Of a stretch of 64,000 bases of DNA, positions 1-9,177 are shown piece after piece. The notes under the pieces are model-generated. The model was not told where the DNA came from. It worked only from the letters and a program-made list of their open reading frames with translations, and made no database searches. The translations under genes were made by a program, and so were the position numbers. The DNA comes from Planctomycetota bacterium (GTDB taxonomy: Bacteria > Planctomycetota > UBA8108 > SXIK01): positions 1,632,001 to 1,696,000 of the forward strand of contig OZ244999.1 in the NCBI GenBank assembly GCA_965223265.1, written 5' to 3'. Within the stretch, counting starts at the first letter, position 1. Each line of letters opens with the position of its first letter.

Positions 1-135
1 CGTCGCGTCGATGTTGCGCGCGCCCGCAGCGTCGAGTTCAGAGACAACGCGCCCACCTGAGATGCAGACGTCTCTCACTTCGCCGTGAATGTCGTTTGCC
101 GGGTCGTAGACCCTGCCGCCGGTTATGCGCAGCAT
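1..135 (-). CDS. fwdA: Formylmethanofuran dehydrogenase / formyltransferase-hydrolase subunit A, N-terminus (truncated by window edge)
   Basis: Manual translation from ATG at 135: MLRITGGRVYDPANDIHGEVRDVCISGGRVVSELDAAGARNIDAT, which fits the FwdA/FhcA amidohydrolase N-terminus (GGxVYDPxN..GE..D..I..G+VV); lies directly downstream of fwdB. Confidence 0.85.
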   Translation of the reverse strand, partial: MLRITGGRVYDPANDIHGEVRDVCISGGRVVSELDAAGARNIDAT

Positions 136-184
136 GCGTGTCGCGTCCGCCTCGTTTCTCTCTGAGTGATCAAACTCGAGCTTG

Positions 185-345
185 ACAGCCCGTTGAAAAA
201 GTCATTCGGCCGAGAAACTGGCCTCTTCGCGCCCAGCTCGACCGCGTCAATACTCGATAATCCCGAAGATTGCCTGCGTTTGCCGCGGCCGATCTGGACG
301 CGAAGAGACCAGTTTTCGGCTCGAAGCATTTTTTCAACAGGCTGT
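185..345 (-). mobile_element. ~161-bp MITE-like palindromic element, copy 1
   Basis: Terminal inverted repeats ACAGCCYGTTGAAAAA...TTTTTCAACRGGCTGT plus a long internal inverted repeat; homologous copies at 14943-15105 and 23053-23213. Confidence 0.85.
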
Positions 346-1676
346 TAAGCGCATGGCACCGTCTTGTACGTCGCCGGCAGCCAAGGCGGCTTCTCTTTCA
401 CTTTGTCGTAGATCCGTCGCACGATCTCTTCGTCGGTGGGATACGGCGAATCGAGAATCGGCCGTAGCGGCAGCGGAATCTCGTCCATGCGGTAGACCGT
501 TCCCGGCGCGCTGATGCCCGTGGTGGCGGTCGTGAAGTGAACGCGCGCCAGGTGGCTCGTGTGCGTTACCTTGGGGTCGAGGACGATCGTTGGGATTCTC
601 GCCAGGTGATCGATCGCCGGCTGCGGCATGGTCGCTCCCGGGTCGGCACCTATGATCAGCGCGGCATCGTTGTCGCCGCGCACGAGCACGTCGATCGTCG
701 AGAACTCGCCCGGGTTGAAGCGGGGGTAGCCGCGCGACAGGTTGACGCCAAACGGATACCCGGTCGACCAGCGCATGATCACGTCGGCGCCGGTGACGTT
801 GCCGTGGCCGCGCATCGGCATCGACACGAACTTGGTGAACGCGTTCATCTCGGCGGCGAGCGCTAACGCAGCGGCCGAGTTCATGTGCTTGCCGCGCGTC
901 ATCGACAGGCCCATGCCGAAGAAGAGAACACCGAAGCGCGCCTTCTTCATACGGTCGACGATTTCCTGCAGCTGCTCAAGTGAAAGGCCCGTCTCCGCCA
1001 CGGCCTCAGCGTCGACGGGCTGGCCCTTGACCAGCGCGCGCATCGTCGTCAGCACCTCGAAGTCTTTCCCCGGTCGCACCTGCAGGAGGATGTCGGCGAA
1101 GCGGCTGCTCAGCGTCTCGCGCACGTCGACGAGCACCATCGTGCGCCCCTTGCGGCCCTCCGGCACGAATTTTCCTTTGGGGGTCAAAGAGTACTTGGTG
1201 AAGTGCCGTGGGTGGCAGTCAGCAGGATTGCCCCCCCAAAAGATCAGGAAGTCCGCCCGGTTCATCACTTCGCCGAGCGTGCAGGTGACTTTGCCACCCA
1301 ACTGGGCGGCGATTTCCGTTGGCCCGTGTCAGAGCGAGGTGTGGCTGTCGACCACGCCTCCGACCAGTTCAGCGAGCGCGACGGCTCCGCGCTGCGTTTC
1401 GCAGGTGGTATTACTGAGGCCGTAGACGAGCGGCATGTTCGCGGCGTAGAGGTACTCCGCCGCAGCGTCGACCGCGTCGTCCACCGACGCCGGCTTGCCG
1501 TCAATCAATGCTTCGGGATAGAGCTTCTCCGCCGTGTGGTTTTTGAACCACGCCTCGCCGAGGCCGCAGGCGCGCTTGGTCTTGGTGATGCGGTCGCCTT
1601 CGGCGTGCAGCTCCATGTCGTCGCACACGCAGCCGCAAAACGTACACGTTGCGTTTTCTACGATCTTTACACTCAT
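345..1676 (-). CDS. fwdB: Formylmethanofuran dehydrogenase subunit B, selenocysteine-containing (UGA at 1329-1331 recoded), 443 aa
   Basis: ORFs 1329..1676 and 345..1301 are in the same frame, separated only by TGA + 9 sense codons (DSHTSL-U-HGPTEIAAQLGGKVTCTLGEVMNRAD); Fe-S motif CTFCGCVCDD...C; PMRGHGNV active-site motif; flanked by fwdD and fwdA. Confidence 0.9.
1293..1310 (-). promoter_or_regulatory. Putative bacterial SECIS hairpin inside fwdB
   Basis: mRNA GCCGCCC-AGUU-GGGUGGC: 7-bp stem with one G-U pair, 4-nt loop with G in the second position; loop lies 25 nt 3' of the UGA. Confidence 0.7.
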
Positions 1677-1847
1677 GGCTTCCTAAAAAGTTATCGTCGT
1701 CATCGTCGCGGCGACGACGATGCCGTCTCGCTACGCGGGACTCGTTCGAACGCGCGCAGTCGCGTCGACGAGTTCACTCGAGATAGTGCTCTCGAGCGGT
1801 GATCACTCCGAGTCGTCTGAGCCCAGACTGGGCCGGATGATGAAGCT

Positions 1848-1997
1848 TCACCCAAGCGCCCGTCCACGAAAGCTGCCGCGGATGCGGCGCGGCATGTAAC
1901 GGCCGACATCGGCGTCGACGAGTTCCCACGCCTGAGGGTCCTCGACGCCGAGCTGGTCGAGCGTCTCGGGAAACTGCGCCTTCTCGACCTCGCTCAT
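1848..1997 (-). CDS. Possible 49-aa small protein or gene remnant
   Basis: ATG at 1997, MSEVEKAQFPETLDQLGVEDPQAWELVDADVGRYMPRRIR...; GC3-rich codons like the neighbouring genes; no clear RBS. Confidence 0.3.
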   Translation of the reverse strand: MSEVEKAQFPETLDQLGVEDPQAWELVDADVGRYMPRRIRGSFRGRALG

Positions 1998-2453
1998 TTG
2001 GCGGCGAAGCTCTGGTCTCCCCCGTATGGGGGTGCGTCCTGCGTCCACTGGGATCTTCCTAATCTGTCGTTGTGCTAAACCATTCTGTTGAGGAGCTCAA
2101 GGCTCGTGAGGAGCCAGCGAGCTCACCACATAAGATAACCGAAAGGTCGCTCGACTGGTATGTCCGTGATGACCGGGCGATTCACAACACCAACAATTCG
2201 CTCCCTTCGTTTCTCCGTTGCCTTGTGTTCTATGCCTTCACAGGAGTCGGTTTTCCGTCGATGCGATTTCGAAAGGCGAGAAAACGGAGGAAACCAAGGC
2301 CGGAGACGATCGCCGTCCTTCGCGATCGGACGACAGTTTTAAAACGCCACGGTTGGCGAGGTTTGTTGTCGTAAGTCTCATCCCATCAAGGAAATATGGG
2401 CCGGTGTTCGGGCCCGGGCCAGTCCAAAACCAGCTGCTTTTTGGCAACCGAGC

Positions 2454-2816
2454 TTACTGCGGGGCGTCAATGGCCTCGACTTCGACCTCCCAGCCCTTGG
2501 AGAGCGGCATCCCAGTCCCGTCGGTGCTCTGACCCATGAGCTGGCAAGTCGGCGGGCCGTAGGGCACGAAGATCATGCCGCGCGGCACCTTGCCATCCTT
2601 GCCACCATGTTCCTTGCAGGTGAAGGTGCCCTCGCCGTTCTCGGAGCGCACGCGGAGACTGGCACCCGGCTCGACGCCGAGCTCCTTGATGTCATCCGGG
2701 TGCATGATCAGCGTGGTCACCAAGGCTTGGTACTCGGCGCCTTCCTTACCGACGTTGATCTGTCGCCCTTGCTTGGTCGTGCGACCGGCGTTCATGATGA
2801 AAGTTTTGGCGGCCAA
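2454..2816 (-). CDS. fwdD: Formylmethanofuran dehydrogenase subunit D (molybdopterin dinucleotide-binding domain)
   Basis: GRTTKQG..., MHPDDIKELGV, GMIFVPYGP, TDGTGMPLSKG motifs typical of FwdD; TTG start. Confidence 0.9.
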   Translation of the reverse strand: MAAKTFIMNAGRTTKQGRQINVGKEGAEYQALVTTLIMHPDDIKELGVEPGASLRVRSENGEGTFTCKEHGGKDGKVPRGMIFVPYGPPTCQLMGQSTDGTGMPLSKGWEVEVEAIDAPQ

Positions 2817-2931
2817 CTGAGTCTCTCGCTAGGTGTCAAATCGTGCCCAAATGGTGTCGGTGACAACCAGCGCCAGTGTAACCGCGAAGGCGCAGCACGG
2901 GAATCCCGCGTTTCTCAAGCCGTACGTGGCC

Positions 2932-3885
2932 CTACCTCTTGAGCGCTTCTGGATCCACGACGCCGGACGACCCGGCGCTGAGGACTTTGTGCAGGTGAAA
3001 GTGAAACTTGCCAAGCTTGCCGCCGTAGTTGCCGGCGCCGATGGCGAGAACTCCCTCGCCCGACGCAGTCTCGAGGGCTGTGCGCATGGCCGCGGCGACC
3101 GCCGCTTCGTCCGTGCCATCGATGACGATCTCATAGCAGCAGTTGGCGCCGTCGACGAGCTCGCTCTCGACGCGGCCGCGCTGCGTCGGGCAGAGCGGGT
3201 CGTTGGTCGAGGCCACGAGTCCCTTGTAACGCGAGCCGACCTTGCTGCCGCTGCGGACGACGCCACCGGGGAACGGTGTGATCACGCCGGGCAGCGCAGC
3301 GATCGCTTCGCTGGCGCGCCGCGCTGCGGCGAGTGCGACGGCCTGCGAGCGCGCCTGCAAGATGATGTTGCCACCGGCGATGCCCTTGGCGACCGACGCC
3401 GTCTCACCGACGAGGAATTCGCCATCCATCACTGGGACCCGCCAGTAACGGGTGCCGTCGTGCTTCTTACTCTTTTGATAGCCATCGCCGAAGAAGCGCA
3501 GGTGCTTGCCCAGCGCAATCGTGTCGTGGGATTCTGTCCCGTTGGCGCCGGCCGCGTCACCCAAACCATCGTAGCAGGCGGTGGTGGGGCAGGTCATGAT
3601 GCACTGGCCGACGCGGTTGGGCACCGCTTTGGCGAGCCCGTCGGTCGAAAACCCAAACAGCATCACCGCCGCGCCGGGCCGACCGTCGGGGGTTTCGCCC
3701 GGCGAGAGGTAGCGTTCGACACCCGCCTCGGCGTCGCAGCTGATCACCGACGTCCCATATCCCGCGACGGAGCGGAGCGCCGCCTCAAGCCAGTAGTCGT
3801 CGACAGCGGTGACGATAAGCCGCGCGTAGCGCATGCGAAACGCTTCGGCAAACGTGTCAAGAATCGTGGTCGAGCCGATTTGCAT
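2932..3885 (-). CDS. ftr: Formylmethanofuran--tetrahydromethanopterin N-formyltransferase (Ftr/FhcD)
   Basis: DTFAEAF, TSVISCDAEAGVE, TPDGRPG, RVGQCIMTCPTTAC, FPGGVVRSGSKVGS, AGNYGGKLG motifs. Confidence 0.95.
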   Translation of the reverse strand: MQIGSTTILDTFAEAFRMRYARLIVTAVDDYWLEAALRSVAGYGTSVISCDAEAGVERYLSPGETPDGRPGAAVMLFGFSTDGLAKAVPNRVGQCIMTCPTTACYDGLGDAAGANGTESHDTIALGKHLRFFGDGYQKSKKHDGTRYWRVPVMDGEFLVGETASVAKGIAGGNIILQARSQAVALAAARRASEAIAALPGVITPFPGGVVRSGSKVGSRYKGLVASTNDPLCPTQRGRVESELVDGANCCYEIVIDGTDEAAVAAAMRTALETASGEGVLAIGAGNYGGKLGKFHFHLHKVLSAGSSGVVDPEALKR

Positions 3886-4133
3886 AGAGCACTTCCGCAT
3901 TGATCAAGGGCTCACCGCACTTGGCGCCCGCAGCGTCGGAGCAGCTGCGGCGACCGCGAGGTGCGACGTTCGAAGCCTATGAACGTAGCCAGGACCGCGG
4001 TGCGAAGCAACTATTTCCAGGGTTTCGATCGAGGGAGCTGGATCGGCTCGCCGGAGGATGTAGGCGATGCGAATAGCCCGAGTGTGCACCCGCGAAGACG
4101 GCTTCAAGGCTCGTTCTACGTTCGAGTAGTGCG

Positions 4134-7100
4134 CTACTGGCACGCTGCGTTGTCGTCACATTCCGGAACCGGCACGCAAGAGAGCGGAGCTCCCGGGAGA
4201 GAGAGCGGATGAGACTCTCCCGCGTCGGTGAAGAGAAACAGGAGAAGGCCAACACCGTCTGCAAGATCAAGCTCGGAATTCGAGTCATGGTCAAGTAGTG
4301 CGATGTTTCCGGCGGCGTCCACCGACCCATCGCCACATGGGAGTGGCCTCGGGTTGCCTCCGAAGAGGTGCAGGAAGAGGCAGATCGGATCAGAGACGTC
4401 TAGGCCCGCGTTTTGGTCGCAGTCGCCAGGCACTCGAAGTCCACCTTCGCAGTCGTCCGGAATCTCATTCGTGTTCACGTCGGTGGAATCGCCCGCGCCG
4501 ATGTCGCAGGCATCGGGAGCGCCGTTGTCATTGCAGTCGGCCTTGACGAATGGAGCGCTCTCGTTGATCAACAGTGAGACAGTGTCTGATCGATTCGACG
4601 TGGCGATTTCAGGGTAACCGTCGCCGTTGACGTCGAGTTGCACAATCCAGGTAGGTTCCGCGCCAACACCAAACGGGACCGGCGGGGCAAAGCGACCGCT
4701 TCCGTCTCCGAGCATGGCTTCGACAAGATTTGACTCAAGTGAGACGACGAAGATATCCGTATGCCCATCGCCGTCACCGTCAGCGCCGACGGCAGGACGC
4801 GCCGAGCCTGCGCCGTCAGCGAATCCACGAGGGGGAAGGAATCCGCCGTCACTATGGCCGAGCAGAATCGCAGTTCTGGAGCCGGAGCTTCCCCTGGAGA
4901 CGGCGACGTCGAGGATCCCGTCACGGTTGAAATCGGTAGCGAAGAGGTGCCGCGGCGTCGATATAGGACCGAAGATTCTTGGGACTCCGAAGGTCCCGTC
5001 ACCCAGTCCCGGCCACAGACGTATCTCATCGGCATCGCGTTCCGTACTGACCAGGTCGAGGAGGTCGTCGCCGTCGAAGTCGGCGGCGACGAACGCTGTG
5101 GTTTGACTGCTCCGATAGCGAATGCCTTCACGAAAGGATCCGTCTCCAACTCCGAGAAGCACGTTCTCTCCTACTATGAGATCTACTCTCCCGTCATCGT
5201 TGAGGTCGGCCGCCGCGATGTTCAGAGAGATGACTCTGTCCGACGCGAGACTCCGCCGCGAGCCGAATCGGCCGTTCCCAGATCCGAAGTGACCGCTGAC
5301 CGCTGTACTCGGGTGCGTCACCGCGAGATCGATCGCTCCGTCCAGATTGAAATCACCCATCGCAATTCCACTGGGTTTTTGAGCTGTCGGAACTGTCTGG
5401 CTAAACCGAAGTCGATCGACCCCGTCGCTGAGTAGTACCGTTAAATCATGGGAATCGTCGTTCAGCGTCACGACGTCGTCGAACCCGTCGCCGTTGAAGT
5501 CGCCGGCGGCGAGCTTCAGTGGGTCGTCACCGACAGGAAAATCCCTTTGTCGGAACGCAAAACGCCTGTCCGAGAAGTTGCACTCGTCAGGAACTCCGTT
5601 GGTATCACAATCCTCACTCTCACCTGCCAGGATCTCGGCTTGGTCGTCGAACCCGTTGACGTTGCAATCGTTTCGGATTGTTGCGACCACTTCGCATTCG
5701 TCAGGGATGCCGTTTCTATCTGCATCGAGACTATTTCCTGTGGTGACGTCGCACTCATCGGGCGTGTGATTGCCGTTACAGTCGCGACTGCTCGGCTCCG
5801 AGGAGCGATTAACGAACAGCTGTAAACGGCCGCTAGCGGACACGGTTAGCAGCTCCGGTCCGCCGTTGTCGTTGATATCGGAGACAAACAGGCCGACTGG
5901 GCGCCCTTGCGTAGACAGTTCGCCCAGCGACCGAAACGTTCCATCGCCGGCTCCCGTAAACAGTGACACTGAACGGGCAGTCTGATTGACTGTGGCGATG
6001 TCTACCCAGCCGTCTTGATCGACATCAGCGATGGCGCTCAACCGCGGGCGGTCGGCGGTTGTCAAACTCTGGCCGAGTGCGAACCTGCCATCCCCCTCAC
6101 CCAAGGCAACGGTGACCGCGTTCTCCTCGAAACTCGTTGCGATGACATCGAGGCGGCCGTCGTCGTTGACGTCACCAACAGTCAGTGACTGCACCGAGAA
6201 TCGCATTGGGCTGATGAGAGCGCTGTCGAACTCGCCGTTCCCACGGCCGAGGAGCGCGAAAAGAAAGAGAGCGTTCTGATCCTCCGATTCCGCCGTCAAC
6301 AAATCCACGAATCCATCGTCGTTCAAGTCGGCTGCAGCGAGCGCGACCTGGCGATCGCCAAGAGGAATCTGCTGGGTAGACATGAAGTCACCACCTCCGG
6401 ATGCCAAAAGGGTGGTGATTCCAGAATGGTTCAAGATCGCGAGGTCGTCGACGTCGTTGCCATCAAAATTCTCGGCGACGATAGCGAAATGTGGCTCGTC
6501 GACTTCAACGGTGCTGGGATCTGAAAAACCCTCGCCTGCAAGGGACAGGAGGATGTCGACTCGTGCTTCGTTGGGGTAAACGACAGCTATATCAGGCCAC
6601 TCGTCGGAATCGAATCGTCCTAACGCGGCCCACCTTACGTTAGAGATCGCTGTGCGGACGATGGTTGCCTCCGGGAAGTCTCCCGAGCTCTCCTGCTTCA
6701 CGAGCGTCAGGCCGTCCTCCGAATCTGTCATGAGAGCATCAAGATCACCATCGAGATCGATGTCCGCCACCGTCAGCGAGTTCGGCTCATAGCCACCCGG
6801 GAAGCTCCTGGCGTCGTGAAACGACCCTCGGTCTTTGCCTCGATAGAGTGTAACGTCTTCAGAATCTCGGGCGGCGACGATGAAGTCCGCCCAACCGTCA
6901 CCGTCGACGTCCTTCACGACCACACCCAACGCGAATCTCCCGACCGGCAGCCGCACATACTCGCGAAACGTTTCATCCTCGGCGCCTTGAATGAGGATGA
7001 ACTGCTGCGTCACTCGATCCGAGATAGCAAAGTCGACTCGATCGTCGCCGTCGATGTCGATCGGCACCACTTTGTCTGGGTTACCACCAACGTTGAGGAG

Positions 7101-8015
7101 AGGGCGCTGGTCGAACGTGCTTTCCGTAGATCCGACGAAAAGCTCAACGTCCCCCGGAATGGTGACCACGACGAGATCGGAGGCCCCGTCCTTGTTGACG
7201 TCCGTCGCGGTCAGGCCGTAAATCCTCGGCACTTCGATATCTACCGGGGCTCGAAATACTGTATCGCGATCTCCGAAAAGGACGGTCACGTTGTTGCTGC
7301 TAGCTACCGCGACGTCCATGAGTCCATCGCCGTTAAAATCGGCCACCGCCATGTCCATTGGATGACTGCTGATGGAAAAACTCTCCGCTGCCGAAAACGT
7401 TCCTTCGCCCATACCGTCGAGCACGCTGATGCTGGCAGAGTCTGAATTGCCGACCACGAGATCAACAACGGAATCACGATTCATGTCGACGGCGATGACT
7501 TGATTCGGTTCCTCTTGCACCGGGTAATTCGTCGGAGGCTGAAACGTGCCATCGCCGTTGCCGAGCATCACCGTGACGTTGTTCGATCGTGTTTCTACGG
7601 CCGCCAAGTCCATTGCTCCGTCGGCGTTGAAGTCTTCAGCCACCATGGAAACAAACGCCCCGACGTTGAGTGAATCGACCCACCCTCGGGGTGTGTCGCT
7701 GAACGCTGCGAGATGAACCTCGACATCGCCGCTGAGCACGGCGACCGCAAGGTCGATCACTTGATCCCCATCGAAGTCTGCGGCGACGATTGAGGTCGGT
7801 TGGCGGCGAAGGGCCAAGCGTTCACTCGAGTAGAACGGAAACTGAGGCACGTCGAGGCTGTCGGGGACGTCGTTCCCGTTGCAGTCTCCGCCGATCCCAG
7901 CGACGGCGAGCTCCATGCCTCCGGGAAAAACCGTCCAAAGCGAAAGCATAAGCGCGGTCCGGATGACGGGACCTTGCATACTCTGGCAACATACGACGAA
8001 CACGTTCCGTTCCAC
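4134..8015 (-). CDS. Large secreted FG-GAP/VCBS-repeat protein with DCNxNGxPD Cys/Ca repeats and a C-terminal dockerin-like domain
   Basis: Many DFxGDGxxDL repeats; DCNGNxxPDxC motifs; PGDCDQNAGLDVSDPICL dockerin-like tail; GAGGGAGG RBS before GTG. Confidence 0.85.
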   Translation of the reverse strand: MERNVFVVCCQSMQGPVIRTALMLSLWTVFPGGMELAVAGIGGDCNGNDVPDSLDVPQFPFYSSERLALRRQPTSIVAADFDGDQVIDLAVAVLSGDVEVHLAAFSDTPRGWVDSLNVGAFVSMVAEDFNADGAMDLAAVETRSNNVTVMLGNGDGTFQPPTNYPVQEEPNQVIAVDMNRDSVVDLVVGNSDSASISVLDGMGEGTFSAAESFSISSHPMDMAVADFNGDGLMDVAVASSNNVTVLFGDRDTVFRAPVDIEVPRIYGLTATDVNKDGASDLVVVTIPGDVELFVGSTESTFDQRPLLNVGGNPDKVVPIDIDGDDRVDFAISDRVTQQFILIQGAEDETFREYVRLPVGRFALGVVVKDVDGDGWADFIVAARDSEDVTLYRGKDRGSFHDARSFPGGYEPNSLTVADIDLDGDLDALMTDSEDGLTLVKQESSGDFPEATIVRTAISNVRWAALGRFDSDEWPDIAVVYPNEARVDILLSLAGEGFSDPSTVEVDEPHFAIVAENFDGNDVDDLAILNHSGITTLLASGGGDFMSTQQIPLGDRQVALAAADLNDDGFVDLLTAESEDQNALFLFALLGRGNGEFDSALISPMRFSVQSLTVGDVNDDGRLDVIATSFEENAVTVALGEGDGRFALGQSLTTADRPRLSAIADVDQDGWVDIATVNQTARSVSLFTGAGDGTFRSLGELSTQGRPVGLFVSDINDNGGPELLTVSASGRLQLFVNRSSEPSSRDCNGNHTPDECDVTTGNSLDADRNGIPDECEVVATIRNDCNVNGFDDQAEILAGESEDCDTNGVPDECNFSDRRFAFRQRDFPVGDDPLKLAAGDFNGDGFDDVVTLNDDSHDLTVLLSDGVDRLRFSQTVPTAQKPSGIAMGDFNLDGAIDLAVTHPSTAVSGHFGSGNGRFGSRRSLASDRVISLNIAAADLNDDGRVDLIVGENVLLGVGDGSFREGIRYRSSQTTAFVAADFDGDDLLDLVSTERDADEIRLWPGLGDGTFGVPRIFGPISTPRHLFATDFNRDGILDVAVSRGSSGSRTAILLGHSDGGFLPPRGFADGAGSARPAVGADGDGDGHTDIFVVSLESNLVEAMLGDGSGRFAPPVPFGVGAEPTWIVQLDVNGDGYPEIATSNRSDTVSLLINESAPFVKADCNDNGAPDACDIGAGDSTDVNTNEIPDDCEGGLRVPGDCDQNAGLDVSDPICLFLHLFGGNPRPLPCGDGSVDAAGNIALLDHDSNSELDLADGVGLLLFLFTDAGESHPLSLPGAPLSCVPVPECDDNAACQ

Positions 8016-8116: not shown

Positions 8117-9145
8117 TCATGGAGGGCCAGGGGGCGAGTGATCACCACAACCAGTGCCGACTCGTCGTCCCGCCGCCGTCAGGGCGCGCATCAAGTCGGC
8201 GACGCGGCCAGCGTCGATCCCACGCCGACGTTCGCCGTCTGCGCAGGCGGCCCCACGGACGGCGAGGACGTCCGCTCCCAGCTCAACCATTGGCGCTACG
8301 TCCTGTCGTCGTAGCGATCCTGCGAGGGCCACCGCGACGCCATTCGCGTGAGCATGTGCGATGAGGCAACTCAGCTCACGAGTGGTCAAAAAGTCTCGTA
8401 GCGAACCCGTCCCTTTGACGAACGTGTCGATCAAGAAGAACGGTAGCCGACGGCGCACGGCGAAATCGAGAACCTGCTGCGGTGCTGGCGCTTTCGCGGC
8501 TGCGTGGTCGGCGTAGGCTACCGCGACGAGGTTTGCCCCGGAGCCGGCGATGCGTTGATACCATGCGTCGAGACAGGCCATCCACGAGTTCGTCGCGTTG
8601 CACGACGAAAGTCCCAGTTTGTAAAGAGCGACGCCAGCGACTGGAAGGAAGGCCTCGGGCGTTTCACACTCGAGCAGCTCACCGAGAGCCGCAGTCACCA
8701 CGACGCGCCGCGACGATCGGATGGTGTCTCCGTTCTCTATGGTCAGTGCTTTGATGACTTCGGCTTGGACGGCTGACGACGCACGACCGAGAGAGCCATT
8801 TGCAGGTTCTTTGATGTCGACGATCGCAGCACCGCCGTTGAGCGCGATCCGTGCCTCCGCGGCATCTCTGACACTGACGAGCAGTCGAGGCGAAACTCCT
8901 GCGTCGGCTGTCGCTCCACGTCGTCCGTTGCACTCGTTCGCAGGCCCATTGGTTCCGCTCTGCAGTGCCGACTGCTTCGCGCTGCGTTCGCGATTGCGGG
9001 CAAATACGCCGCCATCGGAGGGTTGCTGTGATCGCCTCTCTCTCGGTGCCCCCAGATTATCGTCCTGCCGTTCGGGCGCGCGTCGGAAACGACGCGGATT
9101 CGCCGTCTCAGACGTTGGATGGAGTCGATCGCCATCAGGTATCAT
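8117..9145 (-). CDS. mfnB: (5-formylfuran-3-yl)methyl phosphate synthase (MfnB/DUF556, methanofuran biosynthesis); start uncertain
   Basis: LLVSV...EA..AL.GGA.IVDIKEP..GSLG, VAVAYAD, LIDTFVK, ALAGSL, VRGAAC motifs; the conserved domain begins near 8890. Confidence 0.85.
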   Translation of the reverse strand: MIPDGDRLHPTSETANPRRFRRAPERQDDNLGAPRERRSQQPSDGGVFARNRERSAKQSALQSGTNGPANECNGRRGATADAGVSPRLLVSVRDAAEARIALNGGAAIVDIKEPANGSLGRASSAVQAEVIKALTIENGDTIRSSRRVVVTAALGELLECETPEAFLPVAGVALYKLGLSSCNATNSWMACLDAWYQRIAGSGANLVAVAYADHAAAKAPAPQQVLDFAVRRRLPFFLIDTFVKGTGSLRDFLTTRELSCLIAHAHANGVAVALAGSLRRQDVAPMVELGADVLAVRGAACADGERRRGIDAGRVADLMRALTAAGRRVGTGCGDHSPPGPP

Positions 9146-9177
9146 GAACGTCATTCGAAGTGAGAAGACCAAACATC

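Follow-up and report, generated by a model that had tools for sequence, protein, structure and literature searches.

Does a planctomycete read an in-frame TGA as selenocysteine (Sec) in an archaeal-type enzyme of one-carbon (C1) metabolism? The question is raised by a 64,000-nucleotide (nt) stretch of a Planctomycetota bacterium (assembly GCA_965223265.1, contig OZ244999.1, positions 1,632,001 to 1,696,000; the window), where the gene for formylmethanofuran dehydrogenase subunit B (fwdB or fmdB) is divided by a TGA on the minus strand. An inspection of the letters made without database searches (the sequence-only reading) had taken the two open reading frames (ORFs) flanking this TGA as one fwdB gene for an archaeal-type subunit, and had proposed that the TGA encodes Sec with the help of a Sec insertion sequence (SECIS) of the bacterial kind inside the frame. 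Bacterial SECIS elements are stem-loops shortly 3′ of the UGA with a G (and a U) in the apical loop; archaeal SECIS elements sit in the untranslated region (UTR). The features of the gene, with hairpin positions numbered from the U of the UGA as nt 1, are as follows.

345..1676, minus strand: fwdB/fmdB, formylmethanofuran dehydrogenase subunit B, recognized by TIGR03129 and archaeal FwdB/FmdB structures.
1329..1331, minus strand: predicted Sec codon (UGA) of fwdB, codon 116, marked by conservation among orthologues and a Cys column in homologues.
1293..1310, minus strand: predicted apical stem-loop of the fwdB SECIS, 7 bp with loop AGUU (G30-U31), marked by conserved pairing and constraint at fourfold-degenerate sites.

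With the TGA read as Sec (U), 1676..345 forms a single open frame that encodes 443 residues and has U at codon 116 (...DSHTSL-U-HGPTEIAAQLGGK...), which bears out the joining of the two ORFs, and the hairpin GCCGCCC-AGUU-GGGUGGC lies, as had been proposed, with its loop 25 nt downstream of the UGA (1310..1293, nt 22-39). Translation table 11 splits the gene into ORFs of 115 (1676..1329) and 318 (1301..345) amino acids, and gene callers split it likewise; the expectation that annotation pipelines would call it a pseudogene did not hold, the 318-residue C-terminal piece being annotated instead as 'formylmethanofuran dehydrogenase subunit B'. The best explanation, which we hold with high confidence, is that fwdB is a real selenoprotein gene specifying an archaeal-type catalytic subunit, whose UGA-116 would be decoded by the bacterial SelB and tRNA-Sec with an in-frame stem-loop. 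We also identified a conserved small ORF between fwdD and fwdB that likely contains a second Sec codon.

The assignment to the archaeal type is supported by both profile and structure comparisons. The NCBIfam profile TIGR03129 (one_C_dehyd_B) matches FwdB with 497.6 bits against a cut-off of 327.8, residues 8-426 covering positions 1-421 of the 421 in the profile; Pfam gives no match at E <= 0.001. The closest solved structures are archaeal FwdB/FmdB chains (E 3e-114 to 2e-95), with full-length alignments to 9sfi_Q (E 2.9e-114), 8rja_B (E 7e-112) and 5t5i_B (E 3e-109). In these alignments the N-terminal C-x2-C-x3-C...C motif (C11, C14, C18 ... C37) falls on Cys residues of the archaeal chains, U116-H117-G-P on their C/X-H-G-P, with the top match 9sfi_Q showing an X in the column of U116, and the PMRGHxN motif is aligned as well. 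From the structure of the M. wolfeii enzyme, we take the Cys/Sec, which is followed by His, to be a metal ligand and the N-terminal Cys motif to bind a [4Fe-4S] cluster. The window protein thus resembles the tungsten- or molybdenum-containing (W/Mo) archaeal FwdB in its full length, its iron-sulfur Cys residues and its U/C-H-G-P and RGH motifs, and in having FwdA, FwdC and FwdD partners; it differs from it in that the putative SECIS is bacterial and inside the coding frame, and in that the operon has no FwdF/G polyferredoxin genes.

A different kind of relative is 6s6y_B, presumably the non-redox FhcB of Methylobacterium extorquens, which lacks the pterin. It belongs to the same superfamily and likewise serves tetrahydromethanopterin (H4MPT)-linked formaldehyde oxidation in a bacterium, but it matches FwdB weakly (E 5e-12 over 97 residues, 57-153). 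The FhcB-type loss of the catalytic Cys/Sec and of the pterin site is not seen in the window protein, which, as distinct from FhcB, retains the catalytic Sec-His and the iron-sulfur motif and is accompanied by a FwdD subunit.

The UGA itself is supported as a genuine, conserved Sec codon by its distribution. Among 41 related genomes, 12 of 12 full-length fwdB orthologues (79-86% identity; three families of one order) contain exactly one TGA, at this column. A wider sample of 401 genomes of the phylum includes 30 with a FwdB homologue (E <= 1e-20): six have the TGA; six homologues of 58-61% identity have Cys in its place (TSVCHGPS), the Cys/UGA exchange that the sequence-only reading had called for; and in more remote planctomycete paralogues the column holds G, S or a gap. 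When genomes and metagenomes are combined, every one of the 102 loci (87 distinct) with the fwdB motif has TGA at the position, across several phyla, the clade extending to contigs labelled Acidobacteriota, Rokubacteria and Actinomycetota. In the protein database, among the matches listed, every relative above 80% identity is a fragment of 306-329 residues, and full-length relatives at 60-70% identity have C, S or T in the Sec column. The latter include P0005, P0006 and P0008-P0010, full-length proteins 64-69% identical to FwdB with Ser or Thr at the presumed metal-ligand column; because such close relatives carry Ser/Thr, the clade, by this comparison, switches among U, C, S and T at that column.

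These data bear directly on the possibility that the TGA is a sequencing error or a pseudogenizing mutation, and that the complex is a non-redox Fhc-type formyltransferase/hydrolase. The G or S of the distant planctomycete paralogues does indicate that non-redox forms exist in the phylum. Nevertheless, we consider this explanation highly improbable in view of the TGA shared by those 102 loci from several phyla, the selection on the hairpin described below, two flanks that stay in frame and are 79-86% identical to orthologues, and the failure to find any second FwdB homologue in this genome. Contigs from two sequencing runs also match the stretch letter for letter, though both runs come from a single study that is possibly the source of the assembly itself.

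The hairpin downstream of UGA-116 is, as far as substitution patterns can tell, under selection. In a set of 13 sequences all 7 pairs are retained with only GC/GU flips; four fourfold-degenerate stem sites show C or T only, a pattern found at 9 of 124 such sites over the whole gene; and of 25 invariant Leu columns, that in the loop alone is always TTG. Extending the comparison to the 87 distinct sequences, we found all seven pairs in 84, which answers the question of conservation that the sequence-only reading had left to alignment, and CAG-TTG as the loop codons in 87 of 87, with neighbouring Gly, Pro and Thr codons using all four third bases. The base after the UGA is C in 87 of 87. We dropped folding energy as proof: the 26-nt hairpin piece alone folds at -14.6 kcal/mol (z = -3.67, with 1 of 200 shuffles folding as well), but significance is lost in pieces of 52-71 nt. 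Because these longer pieces match shuffles, energy is weak evidence for the hairpin, and sequence comparison carries the support.

The genome also encodes what Sec insertion would require. Profile searches recovered selA (548 bits), selB (324 bits) and selD (309 bits), all above their cut-offs, and tRNA-Sec was found at 70.3 bits, ARAGORN reporting it as tRNA-SeC with anticodon tca; the machinery that the sequence-only reading had proposed looking for is complete in these four components. Together with the conserved UGA and the constrained hairpin, this supports its proposal of Sec decoding with a bacterial in-frame SECIS. A second selenoprotein gene, fdhA, lies outside the window and offers an internal comparison.

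G000:C1:8399754-8401757, outside the window: fdhA, formate dehydrogenase alpha (TIGR01591, 739.7 bits), with one TGA at 8400141 (...CSRA-U-HAPTVAGL...) and, 3′ of it, a hairpin whose loop is GGUCU.

The base after the fdhA UGA is C, as in fwdB. The selD gene (G000:C1:3460739-3461653) lies within an open frame of 790 residues and may be fused to another domain, and a mobA-like gene (G000:C1:7175403-7176026) is found about 5 kb from selB (7168194-7170086).

Several points count against the Sec reading of fwdB and its enzymatic interpretation. The 52-71 nt pieces around the hairpin fold no better than shuffles (z = -0.25 to -0.46). Changes in its pairs are one-sided, since the encoded amino acids leave the partner positions no freedom to vary. 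The loop lies 7 nt farther from the UGA than do the loops of fdhA and the small ORF. The operon contains no gene for an electron-transfer subunit or polyferredoxin, and a sequencing-run search listed no RNA run holding the window stretch. Finally, for the nearest described case, fmdB of Rhodopirellula sp. P2, the bSECISearch entry in Table S9 of Kim et al. (2016, PLoS One, PMC4807772) reads 'SECIS present: no'.

That case establishes that a Sec-encoding fwdB in a planctomycete is already known and not new: in its account of the fmdD-B-A-C operon, Kim et al. (PMC4807772) predicted the P2 fmdB to be a selenoprotein gene, and noted Sec forms in two unclassified bacteria. A 2026 inventory (PMC13188914) marks the FwdB/FmdB selenoprotein family in bacteria as well as archaea in its family listing. 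The P2 gene is alike in having the TGA at the Cys/Sec column, the gene order fmdD-fmdB-fmdA-fmdC, the Sec machinery and a split into two genes in IMG. The present analysis differs in that a hairpin is defined and appears to be under selection, where the P2 paper, in its passages on this operon (PMC4807772), describes neither a SECIS nor a small ORF between fmdD and fmdB. The clade also reaches contigs of Acidobacteriota, Rokubacteria and Actinomycetota, and this genome belongs to another class than the sampled cultured families.

The small ORF, which we did not find described in published literature at this position between fwdD and fwdB, comprises the following elements.

1848..2048, minus strand: small ORF of 66 codons with a GTG start and AGGAAG 6 nt upstream, ending ...GRYMPRRIRGSFRGRALG and then TGA; conserved between fwdD and fwdB.
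1848..1850, minus strand: putative second Sec codon (UGA), TGA being strict across loci.
1803..1847, minus strand: putative read-through extension, SFIIRPSLGSDDSE, with a stop TGA at 1805..1803; codons +1 to +4 are conserved.
1820..1834, minus strand: SECIS-like hairpin with loop G23-U24-C25, marked by covariation.

It is kept in 11 of 11 relatives' loci that span the spacer. Its N-terminus varies in length and sequence, and its last ~25 residues are near-invariant: (A/P)W-E-x-(I/V)-x-x-G-R-(Y/F)-M-P-R-R-I-R-G-S-F-x-G-x-x-L-G. We assembled 119 loci (101 distinct) from 12 relatives, 27 genome contigs (labelled Planctomycetota, Acidobacteriota, Rokubacteria and, in one case, an Actinomycetota metagenome-assembled genome (MAG)) and 80 metagenome loci; in each group, and hence in 119 of 119, the codon after ...GRYMPRRIRGSFxGRxLG is TGA. 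The downstream fwdB TGA is visible in 102 of these 119, most of the others ending too early. One Gemmataceae MAG locus (L119) has the small ORF and fwdD with no fwdB within 2.3 kb downstream, and another (L128) has ~600 nt inserted between the small ORF and fwdB at about 2620-3200.

Conservation continues past this UGA. The next four codons specify T/S/A, Phe (33 of 33), V/I/L/T/A and an aliphatic residue, their third bases varying freely, and a hairpin follows at a fixed distance from the UGA, its G23-U24 loop position being the same as in the fdhA hairpin. This hairpin was first scored on a set of 33 sequences and then on 101, where 90.2% of cells are paired against at most 55.9% with the partners slid, and 63 cells show two-sided changes, where shuffles give 19.1+-3.5 (none of 500 reaching this); one pair, for example, is CG in 58 sequences, UA in 34 and UG in 7. 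It is therefore likely, on the evidence of this comparison, that the small ORF too is read through its UGA as Sec, to give a peptide of ~80 residues; in most relatives the frame of this peptide runs to the fwdB start or close to it. SelB would then decode both UGAs, and translation of the small ORF could deliver ribosomes to fwdB once they have passed the Sec codon. The ORF probably represents a new small selenoprotein or else a Sec-dependent gate for fwdB, the amino-acid conservation just after the Sec tending to favour a functional peptide.

Other interpretations of the small ORF failed more simply: it is not a twin-arginine translocation (TAT) signal, having no hydrophobic stretch, nor an extension of FwdD, which has its own stop; and the FwdD-FwdB fusion protein P0076 shows no linker resembling the small peptide. 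No family in Pfam or NCBIfam matches the small ORF even at E up to 10, and Table 1 of the 2026 inventory, which covers 119 families (PMC13188914), has no fitting entry.

Could the UGA of the small ORF be an ordinary stop, with the hairpin serving some other role, as a SelB-binding operator or an RNA stability element? The UGA-A/G context terminates better than UGA-C, and the base following the UGA here is A in 28 and G in 5 of 33 sequences. In the protein database, 196 clusters match the small ORF, and all 120 listed proteins are called as ending there, at ...LG. A precedent for such an operator exists in the SECIS-like hairpin in the 5′ UTR of E. coli selAB, as described in a report on that operon (PMC13449736). 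However, an ordinary stop does not readily account for a TGA in 119 of 119 loci when the later in-frame stop varies freely (TGA 55, TAA 29, TAG 13 in 97 loci), for amino-acid-like conservation with synonymous changes past the UGA, or for a downstream frame that in most loci stays open as far as the fwdB start. We accordingly regard an ordinary stop as unlikely.

If the UGA is read through, the peptide need not be a working protein: it might instead be a leader peptide that senses Sec and gates fwdB. Only ribosomes that decode the UGA with SelB and Sec-tRNA would open the hairpin and continue to the fwdB start; when selenium is lacking, translation would stop 45-80 nt upstream, leaving fwdBAC untranslated or cut short by polarity, and the synthesis of truncated FwdB would be prevented. 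Such a role would fit the strict UGA with no Cys form found, and the restriction of conservation to ~25 residues before the UGA, a length that would fit the ribosomal exit tunnel. It would also fit the spacing to fwdB: in 97 loci, the stop of the read-through frame shares bases with the fwdB start as ATGA/GTGA/TAATG in 27 and in another way in 5, and precedes it by 0-15 nt in 41, which makes 73 where the frame closes on the start or no more than 15 nt from it. The small ORF also has the arrangement expected of leader-peptide attenuators or translational gates, being short, lying directly upstream of the gene that would be regulated and carrying the codon of the amino acid that would be sensed. 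Arguing otherwise, residues +1 to +4 are conserved, which a pure sensor would not need; fwdB has Shine-Dalgarno-like sequences of its own; and the gap exceeds 15 nt in 24 of the 97 loci, this genome included.

The phylogenetic distribution can be read in two ways. In the phylum sample, all 6 genomes with Sec-fwdB have the small ORF, and none of the 24 whose FwdB homologue is of another kind has it; the Cys-type operons L052-L054 give no match to it in their fwdD-fwdB gaps of about 8, 20 and 100 nt. A weak match in genome G194 (L097, E 1.4e-4) was set aside as noise. This association is what gating would predict, but the genomes being kin, it may reflect one origin.

Precedents for a link between a UGA with a SECIS or SECIS-like hairpin and Sec supply are the selenium-dependent transcript elongation through the UGA described for fdhF-Sec of Treponema primitia (PMC3892789, in its passages on that gene) and the E. 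coli selAB operator (PMC13449736, in its description of the hairpin). In T. primitia the UGA is inside the enzyme gene itself, and in E. coli the hairpin is an untranslated repressor site; here it is a distinct, conserved peptide ORF just 5′ of the selenoenzyme gene that bears the UGA. A switch of the leader-peptide kind that responds to the 21st amino acid is a type of regulator that we did not find in published literature. Overall, a pure gate seems to us possible but the less probable role of the peptide; if it is one, the selenoenzyme operon would be translated, and shielded from polarity, only with Sec-tRNA available. Either way, the small ORF would be of interest, as an uncatalogued selenoprotein family without a Cys form or as a test of Sec supply ahead of a selenoenzyme gene.

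Against the Sec reading of the small ORF stand four observations. Most true selenoprotein families have a Cys-containing homologue, and here there is no Cys form among the 120 listed proteins and no TGC/TGT in 107 loci. The A or G after its UGA is unlike the C found at fwdB and fdhA. The loci are not independent samples and may all descend from one ancestral module. In this genome, finally, the read-through stop lies 126 nt before fwdB; because of this gap, any coupling between the small ORF and fwdB would be loose here.

If UGA-116 of fwdB is decoded as we predict, with SelB and tRNA-Sec inserting Sec under the guidance of the in-frame stem-loop 3′ of the codon, FwdB would be a redox-active catalytic subunit with a tungsten- or molybdenum-pterin cofactor, in which Sec serves as the W/Mo ligand. 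The neighbouring genes on the minus strand, in the order ftr/fhcD, fwdD-like, small ORF, fwdB, fwdA and fwdC, are consistent with this.

2932..3900, minus strand: ftr/fhcD, formylmethanofuran:H4MPT formyltransferase (TIGR03119, 396 bits; PF01913, PF02741).
2454..2816, minus strand: fwdD-like gene, molybdopterin dinucleotide-binding cap domain (PF01568, 1.5e-9; NF042908).
1..135, minus strand: start of fwdA, amidohydrolase subunit, continuing beyond the window (TIGR03121, 705.9 bits; L075 13492-15135).
L075 12631-13443, outside the window and past fwdA: fwdC (TIGR03122, 261 bits).

The FwdD profile NF042908 matches the fwdD-like protein at 1.7e-20 and 73.5 bits, under its cut-off of 175. A homologue of 4-HFC-P synthase, an enzyme of methanofuran synthesis, is encoded at 9172..8117; fae and mch are present elsewhere in the genome, as are moaA (388.8 bits) and the mobA-like gene mentioned above (78.6 bits, under its cut-off), these two being indirect evidence for a W- or Mo-bis-pterin guanine dinucleotide cofactor in FwdB. 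FwdB, with FwdD, FwdA, FwdC and the formyltransferase, would catalyze the last step of H4MPT-linked C1 oxidation, FwdA releasing formate from formyl-methanofuran and FwdB oxidizing the formate to CO2. The presence of fae, mch and ftr makes this oxidative direction the probable one for the enzyme; we infer the direction and the electron acceptor, as we do the insertion of Sec and the metal. The Sec-FwdB suggests that in this bacterium and its relatives labelled Acidobacteriota and Rokubacteria, formyl-methanofuran is oxidized by a true metal-pterin dehydrogenase, not a methylotroph-type hydrolase, which would change the modelling of C1 metabolism and of trace-element needs (Se, W or Mo) in these bacteria.

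The remaining observations concern the surroundings of the operon. The spacer between fwdD and the small ORF (window 2049-2453) is ~400 nt long here, whereas relatives have roughly 90-170 nt; it occurs once in the genome and matches nothing in Rfam. At the E-value threshold, an Rfam scan of window 1-4500 gave a chance match to a viral hairpin only, and no riboswitch in the 780-nt fwdD-fwdB spacer. Between the methanofuran-synthesis gene and ftr, window 4134-8015 encodes a D-G-D-rich repeat protein of 1293 residues, FG-GAP/VCBS-like by eye, without an in-frame TGA; FG-GAP proteins are among the selenoprotein candidates given by Kim et al. (PMC4807772) in their account of candidates. The fwdB-fwdA spacer, ~25 nt in relatives, is occupied here by a palindrome of ~170 nt (window 180-350; arms 180-250 and 280-350, 79% complementary). 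It has 448 blastn matches genome-wide, near full-length copies being 95-97% identical, and looks like a repeat of the miniature inverted-repeat transposable element (MITE) or repetitive extragenic palindromic (REP) type. Beyond fwdC, the operon is flanked by genes for an ISNCY-family transposase and a homologue of REP-associated tyrosine transposases (L075 6340-7353 and 9101-10093), the latter fitting the abundant palindromic repeat.

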